64,000 bases of DNA from an uncultured Gammaproteobacteria bacterium. GTDB taxonomy: Bacteria; Patescibacteriota; Patescibacteriia; Patescibacteriales; UBA12465. The stretch is taken from positions 320,301 through 384,300 of the forward strand of contig CAZTUJ010000001.1 in the NCBI GenBank assembly GCA_964616855.1, read 5' to 3'. Positions within the stretch are counted from its first letter, which is position 1. Each line of letters begins with the position of its first letter. Shown one piece after another: positions 3,351-61,804 of this stretch. Position numbers and translations under genes: made by a program. The notes beneath the pieces are model-generated. The model did not search any database and was not told where the DNA came from. It saw only the letters and a program-made list of their open reading frames with translations.

Positions 3351-4088
3351 ATGAAAACAAAAAGCATGTTAAGGCGTAAAGCCGCCTTTTCCTACGTGTA
3401 TCTTCTTCTGGCGATTTTTGCTGTCGCCCTACCATTCTTGTCCCAGAAAGACATTTTCTATCTTAGCTATATGGAATATGTTCCATATACCTACGGCCGA
3501 TTATTCCCGGAAATATTTTTTTCTTTCCAAATTCTTTTTCTTTGGGCTGCAGTAGTTTGTTATGCCTTCAATTTTTATAAAGGCGCAATTTATTACCCGC
3601 GCTTTTATAGGAGAAATATGCGCAATCGCTGGTCAAAATGGGAGAACTTTATTGATGGCTCTGCTGGTCGAGGTACTGTTTCCACTGTTTTAGTTTTTTT
3701 GTATTTCAGCTATTTTGTTTTTGTCTTTCCTAAAGAAGAATTGGTGCCGGCAATATTGAGAGATTACTTTTGGTTATGGGCTTTTGTCTGGATCGGTTTC
3801 AATTTTTTATTAAACCGCGCCTCTCAAACCGCCAGCTTCTTTCAGTATCGCTCGGCCATCGTTGATCCCCTCATTATTAATCCTGAGGCTAAGTATGGTA
3901 AAATTAATTTCACCGTTGGTTTCTACCTTCCCAAGGGAGAAGATGAGCATCTATTTGCCTTAAGGGCTGTTAAGGCCTATCTGAAGTGGTCAGAAGAGGA
4001 AAAGGCCGATAGGGAAAAAAATAAAATGAAAGAAGAAGCAAAAATTCGCGACTTTTCTGGCCAGGTTGTCGCCTTTAAAGAAGAGTAG
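3351..4088 (+). CDS. Uncharacterised 4-TM membrane protein, paralog 3 of 3
   Basis: 245-aa ORF. MKTKSMLRRKAAFSYVYLLLA, GAIYYPRFYRRNMRNRW, LNRASQT, GFYLPKGEDEHLFALRAVKAYLK, IRDFSGQVVAFK. Confidence 0.8.
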   Translation: MKTKSMLRRKAAFSYVYLLLAIFAVALPFLSQKDIFYLSYMEYVPYTYGRLFPEIFFSFQILFLWAAVVCYAFNFYKGAIYYPRFYRRNMRNRWSKWENFIDGSAGRGTVSTVLVFLYFSYFVFVFPKEELVPAILRDYFWLWAFVWIGFNFLLNRASQTASFFQYRSAIVDPLIINPEAKYGKINFTVGFYLPKGEDEHLFALRAVKAYLKWSEEEKADREKNKMKEEAKIRDFSGQVVAFKEE

Positions 4089-39329: not shown

Positions 39330-39353
39330 TTTTAATTGTCAATTTTTAAACAT

Positions 39354-40361
39354 ATGCCTAAACGTTTTATCTTCATGGGAATTTTTGTTCTCATTGTCGC
39401 CACCGCTTCTTGGTTGGCCGCCGCTAATTGGCAGCCTCAAAAAACTGAGGAGATTGATACTGGCGTTGAAAGTGAGAATGTTGTTGATGGTTCTGTTCCT
39501 TCAGCTAAGATCGGTGTCATTAGTAGTCTTTTCCCTTGGTACGACTTAAGCCGAGAAATCGGCGGGGACCGGGTAGAAGCAAAATTACTTTTGCCGCCAG
39601 GAGTGGAGGCTCACGCTTTTGAGCCGACTCCTAGTGACATGATTGCCTTGAGTAAAACCAAATTATTTGTTTATACCGGCGATTATATGGAGCCTTGGGC
39701 TCAAGATATTTTAGATGGTTTAGGCGGCAGTGCTCCCGCTAGTTTAGTGATTGGCCAAGATTTGGCGGTGTTAGAAGGGGTGGAGCATGAACACGAAGAA
39801 GGCGTTGAAGAAGCGGGTAAAGAGCATTCTGGTCTTGACCCTCACATTTGGCTTGACCCGATGATTATGTCAAAGGCCGCCGGTCGTTTAGCTAAGGCTT
39901 TAGCCCAATTAGATCCGGCAGGTAGCTCTTACTATAATCAGCGTTTAGAAGCCTATCAACATCGTCTGGATCAATTGGATGAAGACTATCGGCAGACTCT
40001 TACCACTTGCAAACAGAATAATTTTATTTTTGCCGGCCATTATGCTTTTGGCTATTTAGCTAGCCGCTATAATCTCAAATATGAAGCGGCTCAAGGTTTT
40101 TCTCCAGATGCAGAAAGTAGTCCTCAGCAATTGCAAGCTTTAAGTAATTTAATCAAAACCACGGGGGTAAAATATATTTTTGCGGAAGAATTAGAAAATC
40201 AACAGTTAGCAGAAGCCTTGGCTCAAGAAAATGGAGTGAAAATTTTATTACTCAACTCCGCTCACAATTTAAGTAAAGATGATTTAAAAGACGGCTTATC
40301 TTATCTCGATATCATGCGGTCTAACTTAAAGCAACTTAGCACTGGTCTCTTATGTCGCTAA
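39354..40361 (+). CDS. znuA: Metal ABC transporter substrate-binding protein (ZnuA/TroA cluster) with an acidic/His-rich loop
   Basis: ATG at 39354. DPHIWLDP hallmark. The loop EHEHEEGVEEAGKEHSG suggests zinc. Confidence 0.8.
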   Translation: MPKRFIFMGIFVLIVATASWLAAANWQPQKTEEIDTGVESENVVDGSVPSAKIGVISSLFPWYDLSREIGGDRVEAKLLLPPGVEAHAFEPTPSDMIALSKTKLFVYTGDYMEPWAQDILDGLGGSAPASLVIGQDLAVLEGVEHEHEEGVEEAGKEHSGLDPHIWLDPMIMSKAAGRLAKALAQLDPAGSSYYNQRLEAYQHRLDQLDEDYRQTLTTCKQNNFIFAGHYAFGYLASRYNLKYEAAQGFSPDAESSPQQLQALSNLIKTTGVKYIFAEELENQQLAEALAQENGVKILLLNSAHNLSKDDLKDGLSYLDIMRSNLKQLSTGLLCR

Positions 40362-41113
40362 TTGTCCGCGTCGATAATTTAAGTGTTGTCTATAATGAAA
40401 TACCGGCGGTGTCGGGGGTTTCTTTTCAGATATCCGCTGGTGATTATATCGGTCTAGCTGGTCCTAATGGTGCCGGCAAAAGCAGTTTGGTTAAGGCCTT
40501 ATTGGGTTTGACAGCGGTAAGTAGTGGAAAGATTGAATTGTTTGGGCAGGATCTAAAAGATTTTTCTCAGTGGGAAAAGATTGCTTATCTCCCCCAGAAG
40601 CATCAGCATAACTTATTATTCCCGGCCAGTGTTTTAGAGGTGGTCGTTAGTGGTTTGGCAGGCATGCCTCATATTGTCGCCGAAGAGGCTAAGGCCAGAG
40701 CTCGGCACTTGTTGCAGGATTTAGCGATAGTAGAAACGGAATCTAAACTTTTTAGTCGTCTTTCCGGTGGTCAGCAACAGCGAGTCTTGTTAGCGCGCGC
40801 TTTGATCCGGGAACCACAGCTTTTAATTCTAGACGAACCGACCACGGCTTTAGACCCACAGGTGCGGGAAAAATTCTTTGCTCTGCTCACTAAAATTAAT
40901 CAGGAAAAGGGAACAACTATTATTATGGTGACACATGATACCGCTGATATTGGTCGCTATGCGCGCTCTTTATTTTACTTAGATGAAAAGTTGATTTTCT
41001 TTGGTCCCTTCGCCGATTTTTGTCACTCTCACGCCATGGAATCTTATTTCGGTGATTTTGCCCAACATTTAATTTGCCATCAACACCTTGATCATTTGGC
41101 GGCCTCGTCTTAA
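40352..41113 (+). CDS. znuC: Metal ABC transporter ATP-binding protein
   Basis: GPNGAGKSS, LSGGQQQRVLLARAL, LILDEP. Overlaps the upstream gene by 10 nt. Confidence 0.85.
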   Translation: MSLIVRVDNLSVVYNEIPAVSGVSFQISAGDYIGLAGPNGAGKSSLVKALLGLTAVSSGKIELFGQDLKDFSQWEKIAYLPQKHQHNLLFPASVLEVVVSGLAGMPHIVAEEAKARARHLLQDLAIVETESKLFSRLSGGQQQRVLLARALIREPQLLILDEPTTALDPQVREKFFALLTKINQEKGTTIIMVTHDTADIGRYARSLFYLDEKLIFFGPFADFCHSHAMESYFGDFAQHLICHQHLDHLAASS

Positions 41114-41117
41114 TCTT

Positions 41118-41927
41118 ATGGAATTTTTAAGCTTCTTCCAATATAGTTTCTTACTCCGAGCTTTAATTGCCGGTTCTTTGATTGCGGTTTTAGCCGGTGT
41201 CCTCGGGGTATTTTTAGTTTTAAGGAAACTATCTTTAATTGGCGACGGTTTGGCTCATGTTAGTTTCGGCGGTGTTGCTCTTGGTTTGCTTTTTGGTATT
41301 TATCCTTTTTATGTATCTTTACCCTTAACTATCATCGCTTCTTTTTTTATTTTCAAGCTCAGTCATCGAGCTCGAATTTACGGTGATGCCGCTATTGGTA
41401 TTGTCTCGGCCGTGGGAGTGGCTGGTGGTGTGGTGATTGCCAGTTTGGCTCATGGTTTTAATGTTGATCTCTTTTCCTATCTCTTTGGTAGTTTGTTAGC
41501 GGTGAAAAGCAGTGAAATCTATTTTCTTATTCTCTTAGTCCTATTAACTCTGGCTTTTCTTATTTACTATTATCGCCCTTTATTTGCCCTGGCCTTTGAT
41601 GAGGTGTCCGCGCGGGCAATGGGGGTAAAAGTCGCTTGGCTTAACAGCGTTCTCTTAGTCTTAAGTGCTTTAACGGTAGCAGTAGCGGTAAAGGCGGTGG
41701 GGGTAATGTTAGTTTCTGCCCTTCTGATTTTACCAGCTGCCGCCGCGTTGCAGAATGCAAAAAATTTCCGTTGGGCTTTAGCCGGAGCCGCTCTTTTTGC
41801 TTTAGCAGCTGTTTGGCTAGGGCTGCTAGCTGCTCTCAATTTTGACCTCCCCGCTGGCGCTAGTATTGTTTTAGCCGGCTTTTTCCTCTTTCTTGGCGCC
41901 TATGCTTTTGCCCGTTTTCGCTCTTAA
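41118..41927 (+). CDS. znuB: Metal ABC transporter permease (ABC-3 family)
   Basis: ATG at 41118 (MEFLSFFQYSFLLRALIAG...). About 8 TM segments, typical of ZnuB/MntB permeases. Confidence 0.8.
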   Translation: MEFLSFFQYSFLLRALIAGSLIAVLAGVLGVFLVLRKLSLIGDGLAHVSFGGVALGLLFGIYPFYVSLPLTIIASFFIFKLSHRARIYGDAAIGIVSAVGVAGGVVIASLAHGFNVDLFSYLFGSLLAVKSSEIYFLILLVLLTLAFLIYYYRPLFALAFDEVSARAMGVKVAWLNSVLLVLSALTVAVAVKAVGVMLVSALLILPAAAALQNAKNFRWALAGAALFALAAVWLGLLAALNFDLPAGASIVLAGFFLFLGAYAFARFRS

Positions 41928-41975: not shown

Positions 41976-43154
41976 TTATAGTCCCTTTTTCCAAATGAAG
42001 GGGGCAAGCATAATCAAGAGTAGTCCTGAGCTGGTCCAGGCGAGGTTGATGGAATAGTGGCTACCGAGCCAGCCACTGCCGAGCAGTCCGAGAAATGCCC
42101 CGGCGTGGACTCCCATCGATTCTAAGGAGAGCATGGTCGCCCGGTTTTCTTGCTGGAGGCGGCGGTTCATGGCCGCTTTTTTTAAAGGGCCAAAGAGACC
42201 GCGACCAAGTTCGTGGACAAGGAAAAAAAGCAGGGCGGGTAAGAAGATGGCGGCTTGGCCGCTGAAAATCATCATCAAGCCAGTGAGCGCAAAAGCAAGC
42301 GCTAAGCCTTGACCTTCATGGCCTTGTTTCTTCGCTACCAAGGGGGCTAAACGGGCGCCTAGAGCGATAGCCAGGGCTACGCCACTAAAGATGAGCCCCA
42401 GACTCCACATCGGCATTTTAAAGCCTTCGCGGAAGAATAGGGTCCACTGCATGTTGAGCGCTTGGACGCTCATGGCGAGAACGGTACTAATAGCAACTAG
42501 ACGCAAGAAAGCGGGATTGCTTTTGCCTTGCTGCCAACTAGTTTGAGCTGTTTGGCGCAGGGGCGCCAAGGAAAAACGAAGGCGTTGGCGTTGAAAATAT
42601 GGTTCGCGTATCAAGCTGAAAGCAGTCAGTGCCGCTAAGAGCATGCCGGTACCACTAAAGAGCCAGGGCAGGGCGAGATTGTGGCCACCAAGCAGAGCAC
42701 CGGCAAAACTACCGATGATTATCCCAGCTTGTTTGTAATGCTCTTCTTGGCGAAAGATTTTTTCCAAAGAGATTTTACTTTCTTGCCAGCGCAGGGAGTC
42801 AACAATCCAAGCTTCTAAAGCTCCGGAAATTAAGGTATAGCCGAAGGCACCAATAATTTCGGCGGCGATGAAGGCCAGGAGATGGTCGCTGAAGAAGTAG
42901 ACATAGAAGGACAGGCCCCAAGCAATGCAACCGAAAATGATAGAGCGGCGACGGCCAAAGCTATCAGCAAAGGCACCGGTAGGCACTTCTAAGATGAAGA
43001 CGCTGAACATGAAGGCGGCATTAATCAAACTCATCTCCAAGATGCTAATTCCTTTTCCCGCTAAAAAGAGTTGATAGGTGGTGAAAAAGAAAGCCGGAGC
43101 CGCGGTTAGCAGAAAGGACATAATTTTAAAGGTACGGAGGAGTGAGGTTCTCAT
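41976..43154 (-). CDS. MFS transporter
   Basis: 392 aa with 12 predicted TM segments. The loop motif ADSFGRRRS is in the MFS signature position. Confidence 0.8.
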   Translation of the reverse strand: MRTSLLRTFKIMSFLLTAAPAFFFTTYQLFLAGKGISILEMSLINAAFMFSVFILEVPTGAFADSFGRRRSIIFGCIAWGLSFYVYFFSDHLLAFIAAEIIGAFGYTLISGALEAWIVDSLRWQESKISLEKIFRQEEHYKQAGIIIGSFAGALLGGHNLALPWLFSGTGMLLAALTAFSLIREPYFQRQRLRFSLAPLRQTAQTSWQQGKSNPAFLRLVAISTVLAMSVQALNMQWTLFFREGFKMPMWSLGLIFSGVALAIALGARLAPLVAKKQGHEGQGLALAFALTGLMMIFSGQAAIFLPALLFFLVHELGRGLFGPLKKAAMNRRLQQENRATMLSLESMGVHAGAFLGLLGSGWLGSHYSINLAWTSSGLLLIMLAPFIWKKGL

Positions 43155-43183
43155 AGATTTAGGTTTTTAGGGTTAAAAGGATA

Positions 43184-43223
43184 TTAATAAAAAATCTCGG
43201 CCCTGATTCCGTCAGGCCGAGAT
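43184..43223 (-). terminator. Intrinsic terminator inside the MFS leader
   Basis: Minus strand ATCTCGGCC-N12-GGCCGAGAT followed by TTTTTTATT. It ends about 30 nt upstream of the MFS ATG. Confidence 0.7.
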
Positions 43224-43400
43224 TTCGCTGTTGTTTTTTGATTGGCGCTTCTAAATAATTACTTAGAAGGCCAGGCATTTACCTAACAGTCCCATTCGGC
43301 CCCAGGGGTCGTTCATACCGACAAAAGCCCGGTCACAGGTGATCGGCTTAAGAGAGTTGAGGTTGTGGTACTGTTTTAGTAAATGCATATCTTTATTGTC
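43224..43400 (-). ncRNA. Candidate structured leader RNA / sRNA (unclassified)
   Basis: ORF-free and about 50% G+C by hand count. A 16-bp closing helix (43275-43293 with 43367-43386) encloses 73 nt. A second hairpin lies at 43248-43269. An ECF-type promoter lies upstream and a terminator downstream. Confidence 0.4.
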
Positions 43401-43406
43401 TATATA

Positions 43407-43436
43407 AATATACGGGAATTACGCCAAATTGTTACA
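43407..43436 (-). promoter_or_regulatory. ECF-type promoter TGTAAC-N16-CGTATATT
   Basis: Minus strand: TGTAAC at 43436-43431, exactly 16 nt of spacer, CGTATATT at 43414-43407. Confidence 0.55.
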
Positions 43437-43496
43437 TTTTGCCAAGAAAAAACCCCGACTCAATGAGTGCGGGGCGAAAACGAGAAAACAGGGTTT

Positions 43497-43826
43497 TTAG
43501 ATAGCGGCGGACAGCTCCATCACTGATTCCAGTTCTTTTTCAATCTGGAGTTGATGGAAGCGCAGAATAGTGGGGTCAGCATTTAGCTGGAGCTGGGGCA
43601 ATAATTTTTGCCATTCTTCTCCAAACTTTTTGGCGCGGTTGGCATGGAAAGATTTATCTTTGCGAGAAGCCTGTTTGTAACAACTGGCAACGCTTTTGGC
43701 TCCTTCCAGGATCCAGCCAAGAATTGTCTGACAATTTTCTTCGGTCGGCGAATTTAACAATTGCCTACTAAGGCGAAATAATTCCGCCACCGGTTCGGTC
43801 TGCTTTTGATTTTTGCTTTTGTCCAT
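43497..43826 (-). CDS. Hypothetical protein
   Basis: 109-aa helical ORF followed on the minus strand by the CCCCGCAC...GTCGGGG terminator at about 43447-43480. Confidence 0.55.
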   Translation of the reverse strand: MDKSKNQKQTEPVAELFRLSRQLLNSPTEENCQTILGWILEGAKSVASCYKQASRKDKSFHANRAKKFGEEWQKLLPQLQLNADPTILRFHQLQIEKELESVMELSAAI

Positions 43827-43938: not shown

Positions 43939-44403
43939 ATGATTAATATTACTCTCTTAGCCGTGGGGACCTTGAAAAATAAGGCTCTGCAGGCTCTAGC
44001 TCAAGACTACACTAAAAGAATCAGCCCCTATGCTCGTCTACGTTTAGTAGAAATTCCGGCGGCGGCTTTTGGTAAGAAGGATAAGAAGCAAGCAAAAAAC
44101 TTAGAAAAAGAGGCCTTAGAAAAAGTTTTGCACAGATATGAAAAAGAAGATATTTTTCTTTTAGCAGAAAATGGCCGTCTTTTTGCTTCTTTGGCTTTTG
44201 CCGATTTTTTAGGAGAGCGTGATGGTGGCAATTTAGTGTTGGTAGTTGGTGGTGCTTTAGGTTGGTCACCGGAGTTCTTGGAAAAATATCCAGCCATCTC
44301 CTTGTCAGCCTTAACTTTTCCTCATGAACTAGCACGAGTGATTCTCCTAGAACAACTCTATCGGGGCTTATTAATAAAGGCCGGTAAAGAATATCATTAT
44401 TAG
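43939..44403 (+). CDS. rlmH: 23S rRNA (pseudouridine1915-N3)-methyltransferase
   Basis: ATG at 43939 (MINITLLAVGTLKNK). C-terminus GGALGWSPEF...SLSALTFPHELARVILLEQLYRG..I..GKEYH matches the RlmH SPOUT family. Confidence 0.9.
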   Translation: MINITLLAVGTLKNKALQALAQDYTKRISPYARLRLVEIPAAAFGKKDKKQAKNLEKEALEKVLHRYEKEDIFLLAENGRLFASLAFADFLGERDGGNLVLVVGGALGWSPEFLEKYPAISLSALTFPHELARVILLEQLYRGLLIKAGKEYHY

Positions 44404-45165: not shown

Positions 45166-45321
45166 TTAGGAGGAGGGCACTTGCGTGAGCAAATCTCGGA
45201 TGATCGTTAGGATCTTCACTAAGATTTCGCTGGCAAGAGCGCTCGCATCGGGGGGCATGGCCCATCTCAGGACTAAGAGGAGTATTAAGACTCCTAAAAA
45301 TCCGCTAAATTCTTTAAACAT
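45166..45321 (-). CDS. Unannotated 51-codon small membrane protein
   Basis: My own translation: MFKEFSGFLGVLILLLVLRWAMPPDASALASEILVKILTIIRDLLTQVPSS, with an ATG start and TAA stop followed by a bidirectional terminator (45133-45160). It is below the ORF-track size cut-off. Confidence 0.45.
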   Translation of the reverse strand: MFKEFSGFLGVLILLLVLRWAMPPDASALASEILVKILTIIRDLLTQVPSS

Positions 45322-45484
45322 AAATTTTAAAAATTAATGTTTATAGAAGAGGGGACTAAAGAGTGACGACCTCTTAGCCTGTCGCTTTGTTCTTTTTGAC
45401 AAAGCGCCCTCCCGTTCCTTGACGGCAAAGTTTCTGCCAGCAAAGAGCGGGAGTGTTGGGAAATGCCTGTTAAAGTACTGTTTT
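45322..45484 (-). ncRNA. Candidate structured 5' leader RNA (unclassified)
   Basis: ORF-free and about 50% G+C. Helices CTCCCG/CGGGAG (45448-45453 with 45409-45414) enclosing GGCA/TGCC, CGCTTTGT/ACAAAGCG (45383-45390 with 45399-45406), and AGAGG/CCTCT. Confidence 0.35.
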
Positions 45485-45490
45485 ACGTTA

Positions 45491-45520
45491 ATCATACGTA
45501 TTTTTACCTATTTTGTTACA
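45491..45520 (-). promoter_or_regulatory. ECF-type promoter TGTAAC-N16-CGTATGAT
   Basis: Minus strand: TGTAAC at 45520-45515, a 16-nt spacer, CGTATGAT at 45498-45491. Confidence 0.5.
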
Positions 45521-49202: not shown

Positions 49203-49230
49203 TTTAAGTCTAGAAAAATATAGACTTAAA
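49203..49230. promoter_or_regulatory. Palindromic operator copy 1 (TAAGTCTA-N8-TAGACTTA core)
   Basis: TTTAAGTCTA-GAAAAATA-TAGACTTAAA with perfect 10-bp arms, 11 nt upstream of the HTH gene start. Confidence 0.6.
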
Positions 49231-49263: not shown

Positions 49264-49293
49264 TTTTAAGTCTATTACATAATAGACTTAAAA
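49264..49293. promoter_or_regulatory. Palindromic operator copy 2
   Basis: TTTTAAGTCTATT-ACAT-AATAGACTTAAAA with perfect 13-bp arms and the same core and core spacing as copy 1. Confidence 0.6.
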
Positions 49294-49338: not shown

Positions 49339-49572
49339 GAGCCAGGCTTAGACGAGATGAAGAAGAGAAGTGACGATTAGGCTTGAAAGCCGTCTATTAA
49401 TTAGCCGCTATAAATAGTGCCACAAGAAGATAAAGGGGACCTCTAGCGTATTAAAAAAAGGGGATAAATTATAAATCTTCTAATTTGCTTTTTTAAGCCT
49501 TTATGCTAGAATAAGAAGGTAAAATTTTGCTTTTAATAGAGAGGGCTTTGTCCCTTATTTTTGATTATTATC

Positions 49573-50160
49573 ATGACCGCTAATCTGGTTAAAAAATTCA
49601 AAGAGAAGCAATTACTGCAACAGCTCAAGAGTCACGACAAAGAAGCTTTTATCAAGGTCTACGATGAGTATGTCCAAGATATCTACCGCTTCGTGTATTT
49701 TAAGGTAGGTAAAGAAGAGGAATCGCAAGACCTTACTTCCATGATTTTTCTCAAGGCTTGGAACTATATCCAGGCCAACTCTTTAAGCGACAGTAAAACT
49801 CTGCGGGCTTTAGTCTATAAGATTGCCCGGACTTCCATTATTGATCACTATCGCGAAAGCAGTAGTAAGCTGGAAATTTCTTTAGATGATGAAAATCATC
49901 CGGTGGAAATAATCGATGACAAGCAAGACTTGGCTAAGGACTTAGACCAAGCGGCTGATCTGGCTTTAATTCGCAAGCAATTACCTTTATTAAAAGAAGA
50001 GTATCGTGAAGTCATTGTTTTGCGTTTTGTTAATGATTTGAGTCTGGAAGAAATTGCGGCGGTAACCGGTAAGAGCCGAGGTAATATCCGCGTCATCTTA
50101 CACCGGGCCTTAGCGGCCTTAAAAGAGATGGTAGAAGAAGAGGCGAAAGGGAAGAAGTAA
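49573..50160 (+). CDS. RNA polymerase sigma factor, ECF/sigma-70 group 4 family
   Basis: ATG at 49573. Region 2 (EAFIKVYDEYVQDIYRFVYFKV) and region 4 (REVIVLRFVNDLSLEEIAAVTGKSRGNIRVILHRAL). Confidence 0.85.
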   Translation: MTANLVKKFKEKQLLQQLKSHDKEAFIKVYDEYVQDIYRFVYFKVGKEEESQDLTSMIFLKAWNYIQANSLSDSKTLRALVYKIARTSIIDHYRESSSKLEISLDDENHPVEIIDDKQDLAKDLDQAADLALIRKQLPLLKEEYREVIVLRFVNDLSLEEIAAVTGKSRGNIRVILHRALAALKEMVEEEAKGKK

Positions 50161-50338: not shown

Positions 50339-50364
50339 ATAAGTCTAGATATACCTAGACTTAT
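50339..50364. promoter_or_regulatory. Palindromic operator copy 3
   Basis: ATAAGTCTAG-ATATAC-CTAGACTTAT with the same TAAGTCTA-N8-TAGACTTA core. Its centre is about 70 nt upstream of the ECF-type -35 element at 50419. Confidence 0.55.
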
Positions 50365-50418: not shown

Positions 50419-50448
50419 TGTAACAATTCGGACCTTTCTCCGTATATT
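50419..50448 (+). promoter_or_regulatory. ECF-type promoter TGTAAC-N16-CGTATATT
   Basis: TGTAAC at 50419-50424, a 16-nt spacer, CGTATATT at 50441-50448. The ORF's ATG is at 50456. Confidence 0.55.
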
Positions 50449-50455
50449 ATGGCGT

Positions 50456-51247
50456 ATGACTGACCACAACTTTATCAAACAATTAAAAGGACTGAAAACA
50501 ATGAACCCGGAAGCTGCTTGGTTAAAGAGCAACCGGGAGATTTTGTTATCCCAAATCGCCAACTCTGGCGCTAAGGAATTGTCTAACTGGCGGCGCTTAG
50601 TTATTGACTTGCGCAGCTTTACTCAGACTCTTTCCCAGCCCGCCTTGGCCTTAGGTTCACTCCTTCTGCTTTTCATTGGCGCTAGCGTCTTCGGACACTT
50701 AGCCTTTAACCGAACCAAGCCGAATGAATCCTTATATATCGCTCGTATCATTTCCGAGAAGGCTAAATTGAATACTATCTTTGATTCTCAAGAAAGAGAA
50801 AAGTTGGAAGCGCAGTTTGCTGCTAATCACGCTGAAGCTATCACCGAAATTTTAGCTGAGACCGTTATCGACGAATCCAATCAAGATCAGGTAGCGATGT
50901 TGAATGAAAAGTTTAACCATGAAGTTGATACCATGCGTGCTAAGATTGCCGCTACGAAACCGGCCCCTACTCCAGCTGAAACCGTTGCCACTCCGACCCC
51001 TAGCTCTGAAGAAGATTTAGTGGTTGCCGGCAATGGTAAGGAAGAAGATGGTTTGCAGTTAGAAATTAAAGATGATGGCAATGACGCTGTCGTTACCGCT
51101 ACTAATACCACGGAAGTTAAGCTTGAAGTCAGCCCCGTGAGCAAGGCTCCGGAAGAAATTTTAGAAGAAGCGAAAACTTTGTTTGATAATAAAGAGTACG
51201 ATAGCGCTTTGGATAAGCTTAAAGAAGTGAAGGAGCTGATTAAATAA
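50456..51247 (+). CDS. Single-pass membrane protein next to the ECF sigma (DUF5667-like / possible anti-sigma partner)
   Basis: 263-aa ORF with one TM segment (ALALGSLLLLFIGASVFGHLAF), a helical extracytoplasmic part and a T/P/E-rich tail. No HxxxCxxC zinc anti-sigma motif. The family call is from memory only. Confidence 0.6.
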   Translation: MTDHNFIKQLKGLKTMNPEAAWLKSNREILLSQIANSGAKELSNWRRLVIDLRSFTQTLSQPALALGSLLLLFIGASVFGHLAFNRTKPNESLYIARIISEKAKLNTIFDSQEREKLEAQFAANHAEAITEILAETVIDESNQDQVAMLNEKFNHEVDTMRAKIAATKPAPTPAETVATPTPSSEEDLVVAGNGKEEDGLQLEIKDDGNDAVVTATNTTEVKLEVSPVSKAPEEILEEAKTLFDNKEYDSALDKLKEVKELIK

Positions 51248-61427: not shown

Positions 61428-61804
61428 TGTTAATCGGGGCAAGTAAGCGGCCGCTTTTTTGCGCTATATGGCGTTAAAAAGAGGAAAGTCCGGACTTCTT
61501 AAAAAAGGCAGCGGGTAATGCCCGCCAAGAGTAATCTTAGGGAAAGTGCCACAGAGACGATACTATTTTATTCTTCGGAATAGAAGAAAGGTGAAAAGTT
61601 GCCTGGTACCCTTCGGGGTTACAGGCTTCGGCCGCCGGTAACGGCGTGTTCGCGGTAAACCCTGCCTGAAGCAAGAGCAAAGCCTGATAGAACGCTTGCG
61701 TTTTATTTGGTAAAAAGTAGCTCGCTTGACCTGACCGGCAACGGTTAGGCTAGATAAATGGCCGCTCCCGACAGAATCCGGCTTATCGCTTGCCCCTCTT
61801 AACC
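61428..61804 (+). ncRNA. rnpB: RNase P RNA, bacterial type A (ends +/- 10 nt)
   Basis: Universal P4 strands GAGGAAAGTCCGGAC (61481-61495) and ACAGAATCCGGCTTATCG (about 61771-61788). GGGTAATGCCCGCC and GGGAAAGTGCCACAGA blocks. P1 pairing GGGGCAAG/CTTGCCCC. Confidence 0.9.

Follow-up and report, generated by a model that had tools for sequence, protein, structure and literature searches.

How is a transporter gene expressed when an intrinsic terminator stands between its start codon and the promoter upstream of it? The question is raised by a locus in a 64,000-nucleotide (nt) stretch of contig CAZTUJ010000001.1, hereafter the window, where an extracytoplasmic function (ECF)-type promoter, a GC-rich leader and a terminator precede, on the minus strand, a gene for a transporter of the major facilitator superfamily (MFS). 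The original prediction took the leader to be free of open reading frames (ORFs) and proposed a novel riboswitch or attenuator, or a small RNA (sRNA). The leader instead contains a 41-codon ATG ORF at 43388–43263, conserved in all relatives, and comparative analysis and in silico folding indicate that the MFS gene is probably controlled by a transcription attenuator of the ribosome-mediated (leader-peptide) kind. The locus has a leader ORF with signs of translation, a terminator between that ORF and the gene, and an antiterminator that shares the 5′ arm of the terminator. In silico, an anti-antiterminator also lies inside the ORF, so that the position of a ribosome would select the fold.

The leader ORF (43263..43388, minus strand; MHLLKQYHNLNSLKPITCDRAFVGMNDPWGRMGLLGKCLAF) ends in a TAA stop and starts about 15 nt downstream of the inferred transcription start. 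Its G+C content of about 49%, against 13–16% at 49.2 kb, agrees with the contrast that was first counted by hand (about 50% versus 13%). Relatives were gathered through the MFS protein and comprise 13 distinct loci with the same synteny and MFS genes 59–94% identical, named Candidatus Falkowbacteria or unclassified metagenome-assembled genomes of the Candidate Phyla Radiation (CPR), as well as distant loci in unrelated genomic contexts with MFS genes of 39–46% identity, namely L017 (a Parcubacteria bin), L018 and L019/L020 (Moranbacteria GW2011_GWF2_34_56). The set thus holds 13 Falkowbacteria-like loci, two other Parcubacteria and one Moranbacteria genome; a metagenome DNA scan with the terminator pattern yielded one further close relative only, L005. 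In every relative obtained, the orthologous MFS gene is preceded by an ORF of 37–50 codons, and the ORF is conserved at this length in 17 loci. It runs for 39–43 codons in the 13 distinct Falkowbacteria-type loci, from an invariant ATATG placed 18–21 nt past the −10 element, and the homologous ORFs of L017, L018 and L019 have 49, 37 and 50 codons, respectively. All Falkowbacteria-type loci share the order upstream terminator, TGTAAC-N-CGTATA, ATATG, ORF, stop-containing hairpin, terminator and MFS ATG. A small ORF and a terminator are also found directly upstream of the MFS gene in L017, L018 and L019/L020, and the small ORF is linked to the MFS gene across four different genomic contexts. Between the Falkowbacteria, L017/L019 and L018, the primary sequence of the core is nearly fully replaced; the ORF and the pairing logic persist.

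Several features make the ORF look translated. It has no in-frame stops over 37–49 codons, compared with a mean of 3.0 per off-frame (12 independent lineages), gaps in its alignment are all 3 or 6 nt long, hence multiples of three, and the ratio of nonsynonymous to synonymous substitution rates is 0.16–0.43 (five close pairs, unsaturated). The peptides of the relatives share the motif ..Q.HN....PIT.D[RC]G.F...GR..LL.R.IAP, which takes the form ..Q.HN....PIT.D[RC]G.F.VY..GR.ELL.R.IAP in the peptide alignment. Gene-calling pipelines called the ORF independently in several assemblies, as a ‘hypothetical protein’ wherever the source named it. A Pfam search with the 41-residue peptide found no family, and profile searches of 5.8 billion proteins returned 2, later 8, proteins, likewise ‘hypothetical’ wherever named; the leader-peptide family is either uncommon or seldom called. 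Of the 13 Falkowbacteria-type peptides, ten (L001, L002, L006, L007, L009, L010, L012, L013, L014 and L015) end in proline followed by the stop codon (…IAP*), a context that slows translation termination; the peptide of the window itself ends …LAF*.

The terminator lies at 43189..43225 on the minus strand and consists of AAAUCUCGGCCUGA-CGGAA-UCAGGGCCGAGAUUU followed by a U6 tract. It had been described as a textbook terminator, and the fold bears this out, with a stem of 13–15 bp, one bulged G and an energy of −20.3 kcal/mol; a simple terminator scan missed it, the bulged stem probably lying outside the pattern of that scan. The Falkowbacteria-type terminator is almost invariant (AAUCUCGrCCy.ACGGAAUCAGGryCGAGAU + U6-8) and 98% paired; a single pair shows a GC/AU/GU swap. 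Its 5′ arm and loop stay nearly invariant while the flanking genes are only 59–69% identical, as expected if the arm must pair with two partners. The distance from the terminator to the MFS ATG, which is at 43154 as originally given, is 34 nt in the window, 18–67 nt in 14 Falkowbacteria-type loci (18 in L014), 28 nt in L018 and 100 nt in L017. A scan for sigma-70-like promoters, one promoter type only, found none conserved between the leader stop codon and the MFS ATG and no match between the terminator and that ATG, in line with the suggestion that the transporter is transcribed by read-through.

The predicted second partner of the terminator 5′ arm is the 3′ third of the ORF. Segment 2 (43275..43308, minus strand; ORF codons ~27–38, with GGCCGA and ACUGUU) has two alternative partners, segment 1 (the 5′ strand of a helix, P1) or segment 3 together with the terminator 5′ arm. 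Segment 3 (43208..43233, minus strand) comprises CAACAG, the terminator 5′ arm AAAUCUCGGCCUGA and the loop CGGA, and would form the 3′ strand of the antiterminator. The complementarity thus extends from a CAACAG-like box through the terminator 5′ arm and often into the loop (UUCCG with CGGAA). In the window, the antiterminator duplex is predicted at between −17.6 and −21.0 kcal/mol, the value varying with the windows chosen; across the loci it is −20 to −32 kcal/mol (16/16) and always involves ORF codons ~25–40. Compared with windows from the MFS gene of the same locus, the antiterminator falls within the lowest 5% in 12 of 14 loci, and in 15 of 17 it is well below the background of its own gene. 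In L017, L018 and L019, the antiterminator energy is reached by none of some 100 windows drawn from the MFS gene (0/103 in L019), and the whole-locus background reaches it in 0 of 300 windows for L018 and in 0.7% of 301 for L017. L018 has an unrelated terminator, GGAGCCAUC, with a matching ORF segment, GAUGGUUCUC; its cognate antiterminator is predicted at −32.1 kcal/mol, as opposed to −11.7 and −14.4 kcal/mol for crosses with the window, a pattern that reads as whole-helix compensation. When columns are tested in a fixed register, 76% of the antiterminator cells are paired, against 31–46% with the partner slid. The 8-nt antiterminator proposed earlier (GGCCGAAT) survives in part: its GGCCGA does pair with the terminator 5′ arm, inside a longer conserved pairing, but the exact 8-mer is not conserved. 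As an exact element (GGCCGAAU) it was rejected, CGA being replaced by GGG in L004 and L005, in favour of the wider segment 2/segment 3 pairing.

Opposing the antiterminator is helix P1. The 226-nt RNA has a minimum free energy (MFE) of −72.5 kcal/mol (z = −5.1 against dinucleotide shuffles, with 0/200 shuffles folding as well), and its MFE structure pairs transcript positions 18–46 (43386–43358) with 100–129 (43304–43275), so the helix predicted to join the ends of the GC-rich stretch is recovered. The 5′ strand, segment 1 (43358..43386, minus strand), was read from the MFE folds; it runs from the G of the AUG to about codon 10 and includes AACAGU. In terms of the ORF, P1 pairs codons ~2–12 with codons ~26–38, and would act as an anti-antiterminator. 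Cognate P1 duplexes are more stable than non-cognate ones (−17.0 versus −11.0 kcal/mol), in 11/11 lineages tested (Wilcoxon p = 0.0005), and the core AACAGY/RCUGUU shows compensatory variants, among them AACAACAC/GUGUUGUU in L007 and ACAUG/CAUGU in L010 and L015.

Two further hairpins complete the fold. P2 (43326..43348, minus strand), found in the RNAalifold consensus, lies inside the ORF over the PITCDRA codons, with a conserved U-rich tract behind it; the hairpin is 90.8% paired, with 4 of 7 pairs changing on both sides, and may serve as an RNA-polymerase pause hairpin that synchronises the ribosome with RNA polymerase. Taken together, P1, P2 and the terminator are 91% paired, compared with 27–50% when the partners are slid, and two-sided changes are seen at nine pairs; shuffles give 4.0 ± 1.2 and never reach the observed value (0/500). 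The covariation that the earlier account had called for in relatives is thus present in P1 and P2, and the helices are conserved. P3 (43244..43273, minus strand) contains the previously noted 7-bp hairpin CTTCTAA/TTAGAAG (CUUCUAAG/UUUAGAAG), extended by GGC/GCC, and is predicted to form the apical part of the antiterminator stem-loop. The leader stop codon (43265–43263) sits in the 5′ arm of P3. A stop codon inside a local hairpin recurs in 14/14 Falkowbacteria-type sequences, with hairpin sequences that differ between lineages.

The behaviour of the switch was modelled by folding nascent transcripts that lack the terminator 3′ arm, with or without codons 1–13 masked. For the window, the free RNA forms 27 P1 pairs and places 0/10 terminator-arm bases in the antiterminator, and masking brings 9/10 of these bases into pairing with the ORF 3′ third. 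Across loci, masking codons 1–13 leads to pairing of the terminator 5′ arm with the ORF 3′ third in 15/16 nascent transcripts. Masking a ribosome at the stop codon has no consistent outcome in equilibrium folding.

The element would therefore work by a choice among three mutually exclusive pairings: P1, the antiterminator enclosing P3, and the terminator AAAUCUCGGCCUGA/UCAGGGCCGAGAUUU with its U6 tract. A leader without a ribosome would form P1 and then the terminator, so that a transcript of about 215 nt would be made but no MFS mRNA. A ribosome that reaches the stop codon smoothly would sit inside P3, in the middle of the antiterminator, and termination would again follow. Stalling within the first third of the ORF, on the other hand, would place the ribosome over segment 1 and leave segment 2 free to capture the emerging terminator 5′ arm, with read-through into the MFS gene.

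A number of observations weigh against this model. The antiterminator is already the MFE structure in 10 of the 16 truncated transcripts without any masking, so the decision would have to be kinetic, and the z-scores of P1 in single sequences are modest (−0.6 to −4.5 against shuffles). Within the Falkowbacteria set, the fixed-register column test gives no column-level covariation for the antiterminator; support for this pairing comes from the tests of energy against background and from the divergent L017, L018 and L019. The two closest relatives have GGCGGG in place of GGCCGA and keep the wider pairing only through G-U pairs. On the side of translation, the leader ORF lacks the AACCCTAAA-like motif found before many genes of this genome, segment 1 has neither a run of identical regulatory codons nor a recognised arrest motif, and the conservation of PITxDRG coincides with hairpin P2 and may reflect constraint on the RNA rather than on the protein.

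If the peptide itself were the product, for example a stress peptide of an ECF regulon, the hairpin would be its terminator and the MFS gene would be independent or served by constitutive leak-through. The peptide is conserved under mild purifying selection, its gene has its own promoter and a strong terminator, and a 51-residue transmembrane protein (45321–45166) has the same promoter type. We nevertheless regard a stand-alone small-protein gene as improbable, as it does not account for the complementarity that every lineage, including L018 with its different terminator, keeps between the ORF 3′ third and the 5′ arm and loop of the terminator, for the covariation of the 5′ and 3′ parts of the ORF or for the lasting linkage of the small ORF to the MFS gene in four genomic contexts; nor was a sigma-70-like promoter found for the MFS gene, whose ATG in L014 follows the terminator by only 18 nt. 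A trans-acting or dual-function sRNA would instead make the terminated transcript of ~215 nt, possibly with its peptide, act on other targets. The element is indeed a discrete promoter-to-terminator unit whose default product would be the terminated RNA, its terminator loop and stem are unusually conserved, and attenuator-derived sRNAs have a precedent: the trp attenuator RNA rnTrpL and its peptide peTrpL are said to act on other targets. The conserved loop, however, is already explained by the antiterminator (UUCCG with CGGAA), and such a role, which is compatible with the attenuator model and may hold in addition to it, seems quite improbable as the explanation of the locus.

Rfam contains no family for this RNA: no match reaches the gathering threshold anywhere in the window except RNase P, and positions 43000–43600 give only chance-level matches at E ≤ 10, which accords with the earlier failure to recognise T-box, ykkC/guanidine, fluoride, preQ1 or signal recognition particle signatures by eye. 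(The exception is a full-length RNase P class A RNA at 61435–61801 on the plus strand, 233.5 bits.) A metabolite- or ion-binding riboswitch or a protein-binding leader, with P1, P2 and P3 as the aptamer, a ligand that stabilises P1 or the antiterminator and an incidental ORF, is highly improbable: the RNA is strongly structured (z = −5.1), P1 and P2 covary and the terminator/antiterminator platform is of riboswitch type, but the frame-specific absence of stops, indels of 3n only and an ORF length kept across ~40–50% nucleotide divergence argue for translation, no unpaired nucleotides outside the codons are invariant as in ligand pockets, no Rfam family matches, and what persists from lineage to lineage is the ORF and the pairing logic, not the primary sequence of the core. 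The novel ligand-binding riboswitch of the original prediction thus gives way to a core that is a conserved ORF, in the geometry of a leader-peptide attenuator.

The gene under the control of the proposed attenuator (41976..43154, minus strand) encodes a 392-residue MFS_1 transporter (Pfam MFS_1, E = 1.6e-19). Its best NCBIfam matches, Tet(40), TetA(P), HP1165 and DHA3, are weak and all far below the curated cut-offs, and NorA is the closest solved structure; the protein is probably of the drug/H+ antiporter type. Our favoured guess for the inducing signal is translation stress, such as that caused by a ribosome-targeting antibiotic, because the MFS protein resembles a drug/H+ antiporter, the promoter is of a stress type and experimentally established analogues exist. 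Starvation for a specific aminoacyl-tRNA, with segment 1 holding a cluster of Gln, His and Asn codons, or ligand-dependent arrest by the nascent peptide are alternatives that we offer as conjecture. A more elaborate scenario, which we consider unlikely, is that the 41-residue leader (…PITxDRGxF…GR.ELL.R.IAP-stop) is a sensory arrest peptide for an antibiotic or the transporter substrate in the exit tunnel of the unusual, protein-depleted CPR ribosome, with the ECF sigma factor as a second, envelope-stress input; the result would be a two-input AND gate shared by the Falkowbacteria, the Moranbacteria and other Parcubacteria, and the abundant terminated RNA, or its peptide, might in addition have a function in trans. 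On the far side of the gene, a ZnuA/ABC_tran/ABC-3 metal-uptake operon (39336–41927, plus strand) converges on the MFS 3′ end, a neighbourhood kept in most relatives, which could hint at a metal-related substrate.

The start of the MFS gene carries signals of its own. AACCCTAAAA (43165..43174, minus strand) is the likely translation-initiation signal, judged by a motif that occurs 8–20 nt before many start codons and was listed from sequences upstream of ORFs of at least 150 residues. The conserved CTAAAA before the MFS ATG was considered as the −10 box of a leaderless mRNA and rejected, as a AACCCTAAA-like motif precedes many genes; one copy lies in an upstream region inside the preceding ORF, and the motif is probably a general initiation signal. 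Similar AACC(C)TnAAA-like sequences stand 8–20 nt before many starts (for example, the ORFs starting at 3351, 5392, 8143, 10654, 14075, 14677, 32649 and 47290), canonical GGAGG is rare in the window, and a TATAAT box precedes the ATG of several other genes at varying distances (~6 nt at 43939). These observations suggest that this organism uses a non-canonical initiation signal and often has leaderless mRNAs. Between terminator and start codon, 15–20 nt past the terminator U-tract, we noted by eye a conserved GCUGUyGUUCUUUaAAA in L001, L002, L006, L007, L009, L013 and L015, absent or shortened in the lineage of the window itself. The ACAGC box immediately 5′ of the terminator is a possible partner for the GCUGU of this motif, with apparent compensation, also judged by eye, in L010, L013 and L014, and the motif might shape the read-through mRNA.

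Transcription of the element appears to start from a promoter of its own. The predicted TGTAAC-N16-CGTATA was located at 43436–43409 on the minus strand and is conserved; more precisely, it reads TGTAACA (−35, with an AAC core), 15 nt and CGTATA (−10, with a CGT core; 43409..43436), and places the inferred transcription start at about 43403 ± 3, ~7 nt past CGTATA. Upstream, an intrinsic terminator read directly from the sequence (43446..43474, minus strand; CCCCG...CGGGG plus a U-run) ends a gene for a 109-residue protein, for which Pfam holds nothing, and includes the stop codon of that gene. An equivalent hairpin with a T-run is present in all relatives, and this terminator insulates the element from upstream transcription. 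The promoter motif is conserved in 13 relatives and in L018, where it is the same TGTAACA-N15-CGTATA, and differs from the canonical TTGACA/TATAAT promoters before other genes of the window. TGTAACA-N15-CGTAT[AG] occurs three times in the window, at 43436, 45519 and 50419, with identical spacing, where 0 copies of the strict pattern are expected.

ECF promoters bear an AAC (−35) and CGT (−10) signature (PMC5758882). Here AAC lies in the −35 and CGT in the −10 element, at a spacing in keeping with the roughly 16–17 nt expected of such a promoter, and the window contains an ECF sigma gene with which the motif is associated at its own locus. The ECF-type assignment of the original prediction is reinforced by the recurrence of the motif, at identical spacing, beside the ECF sigma/DUF5667 gene pair and before a third small gene, and because of the copy beside that pair the promoter is probably ECF-dependent, a reading with good, if indirect, support. 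The sigma gene (49561..50160, plus strand), which probably encodes the cognate factor, matches Pfam Sigma70_r2, Sigma70_r4 and Sigma70_ECF and the NCBIfam superfamily TIGR02937 above cut-off, and is similar to the BldN, SigM, SigW and SigX families. The second promoter copy (50419–50446) is followed by a gene for a 263-residue DUF5667-like protein (50456–51247), the two together spanning 50419..51247 on the plus strand. The match to DUF5667 is sub-threshold (21 bits, with a cut-off of 27), and we suspect that the protein is an anti-sigma-type partner. In L017 and L019 the same module stands behind sigma-70-type promoters (TTGACA-N17-TAAAAn), so the attenuator and the ECF input are separable layers.

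At the sigma locus, a 258-nt AT-rich gap separates the ECF sigma gene from the promoter motif at 50419–50446 (plus strand), and the DUF5667-like gene begins only ~10 nt past the −10 element, so that its mRNA would be nearly leaderless. The palindrome AAGTCTA-N8-TAGACTT occurs at 49206–49227, 49268–49289 and 50341–50362, in very AT-rich spacers that flank the ECF sigma gene, and is absent from the rest of the window; these copies could be terminator-like hairpins or operator sites. The third promoter copy (45519–45492, minus strand; TGTAACA-N15-CGTATG) opens an arrangement at 45166–45519 that is kept in 7 relatives, a structured leader of ~170 nt followed by a conserved 51-residue membrane protein (45321–45166) and a terminator. 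A conserved 18-bp hairpin is accompanied in this leader by two smaller ones, giving 22 consensus pairs of which 6 show compensatory changes. No ORF is conserved in it and Rfam gives no match, and we regard it as a candidate for a new cis-regulatory RNA of the same regulon. A 53-residue ORF at 45495–45334, which shares the string AAAACAGTAC (peptide KQY) with the 41-codon leader ORF, was considered as a paralogous leader and rejected, as its ATG overlaps the −10 element and its frame is broken in relatives.

CPR/Patescibacteria are uncultivated and have tiny genomes, and to our knowledge almost nothing is known of their gene regulation and only a small number of cis-regulatory RNAs are on record for the group. 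Full-text literature searches returned no description of attenuators or leader peptides in these bacteria. The mechanism class is textbook; the leader family itself lacks annotation, and neither Rfam nor Pfam contains it. The element provides a conserved and computationally well-supported case of translation-coupled transcription attenuation in CPR, which implies coupling of transcription and translation there, and it could help to identify the substrate of the MFS transporter and the stimulus to which the ECF sigma/DUF5667 system responds. It also shows how small ‘hypothetical’ ORFs of 37–50 codons before transporters in metagenome bins can be regulatory leaders and not annotation noise.

The alternative-pairing logic proposed here is the one known from the attenuators of amino-acid operons (trp, his, leu and thr), in which 1:2, 2:3 and 3:4 pairings compete, a stall on segment 1 frees segment 2, and either no translation or complete translation leads to termination. 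In contrast to those leaders, the one described here has no tandem regulatory codons, its ORF spans both segments 1 and 2, and it precedes a transporter gene as opposed to a biosynthetic operon. TnaC and SpeFL are ligand-sensing arrest peptides that act through Rho-dependent termination, with proven stalling. They resemble our element in having a conserved leader peptide that controls downstream transcription, and most members of the family described here end in Pro-stop as TnaC does, but here the terminator is intrinsic and arrest is conjectural.

Closer in the type of gene controlled are the leader-peptide attenuators mefAL-mefA and msrDL-msrD of the macrolide efflux (MEGA) element (PMC10314930). 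In mefAL-mefA, a leader peptide and a Rho-independent terminator likewise lie upstream of an MFS efflux gene, and a stalled ribosome prevents terminator formation. The mefAL and msrDL leaders, however, have 6–8 codons with macrolide-arrest motifs (+x+, MYLIFM), as opposed to 41 codons and no recognised arrest motif, and there the ribosome unwinds the terminator directly, whereas we propose a relay through P1 and the antiterminator. In bmrB-bmrCD of Bacillus subtilis, a multidrug exporter is controlled by ribosome-mediated transcriptional attenuation, and induction requires translation of the leader (PMC4191407). The two systems have no sequence similarity, and the mechanism is experimentally established in B. 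subtilis and predicted in silico here. They also differ in that bmrCD encodes an ABC transporter under an AbrB-controlled promoter, in place of an MFS protein and an ECF-type promoter, and in that the bmrB terminator lies inside the ORF, whereas our ORF ends in a separate hairpin, 40 nt before the TCTCGG core (~37 nt before the stem base). In both, a long leader ORF (37–50 codons here, reportedly 54 in bmrB) stands immediately upstream of a drug-exporter-type transporter, and the anti-antiterminator, antiterminator and terminator overlap the small ORF.

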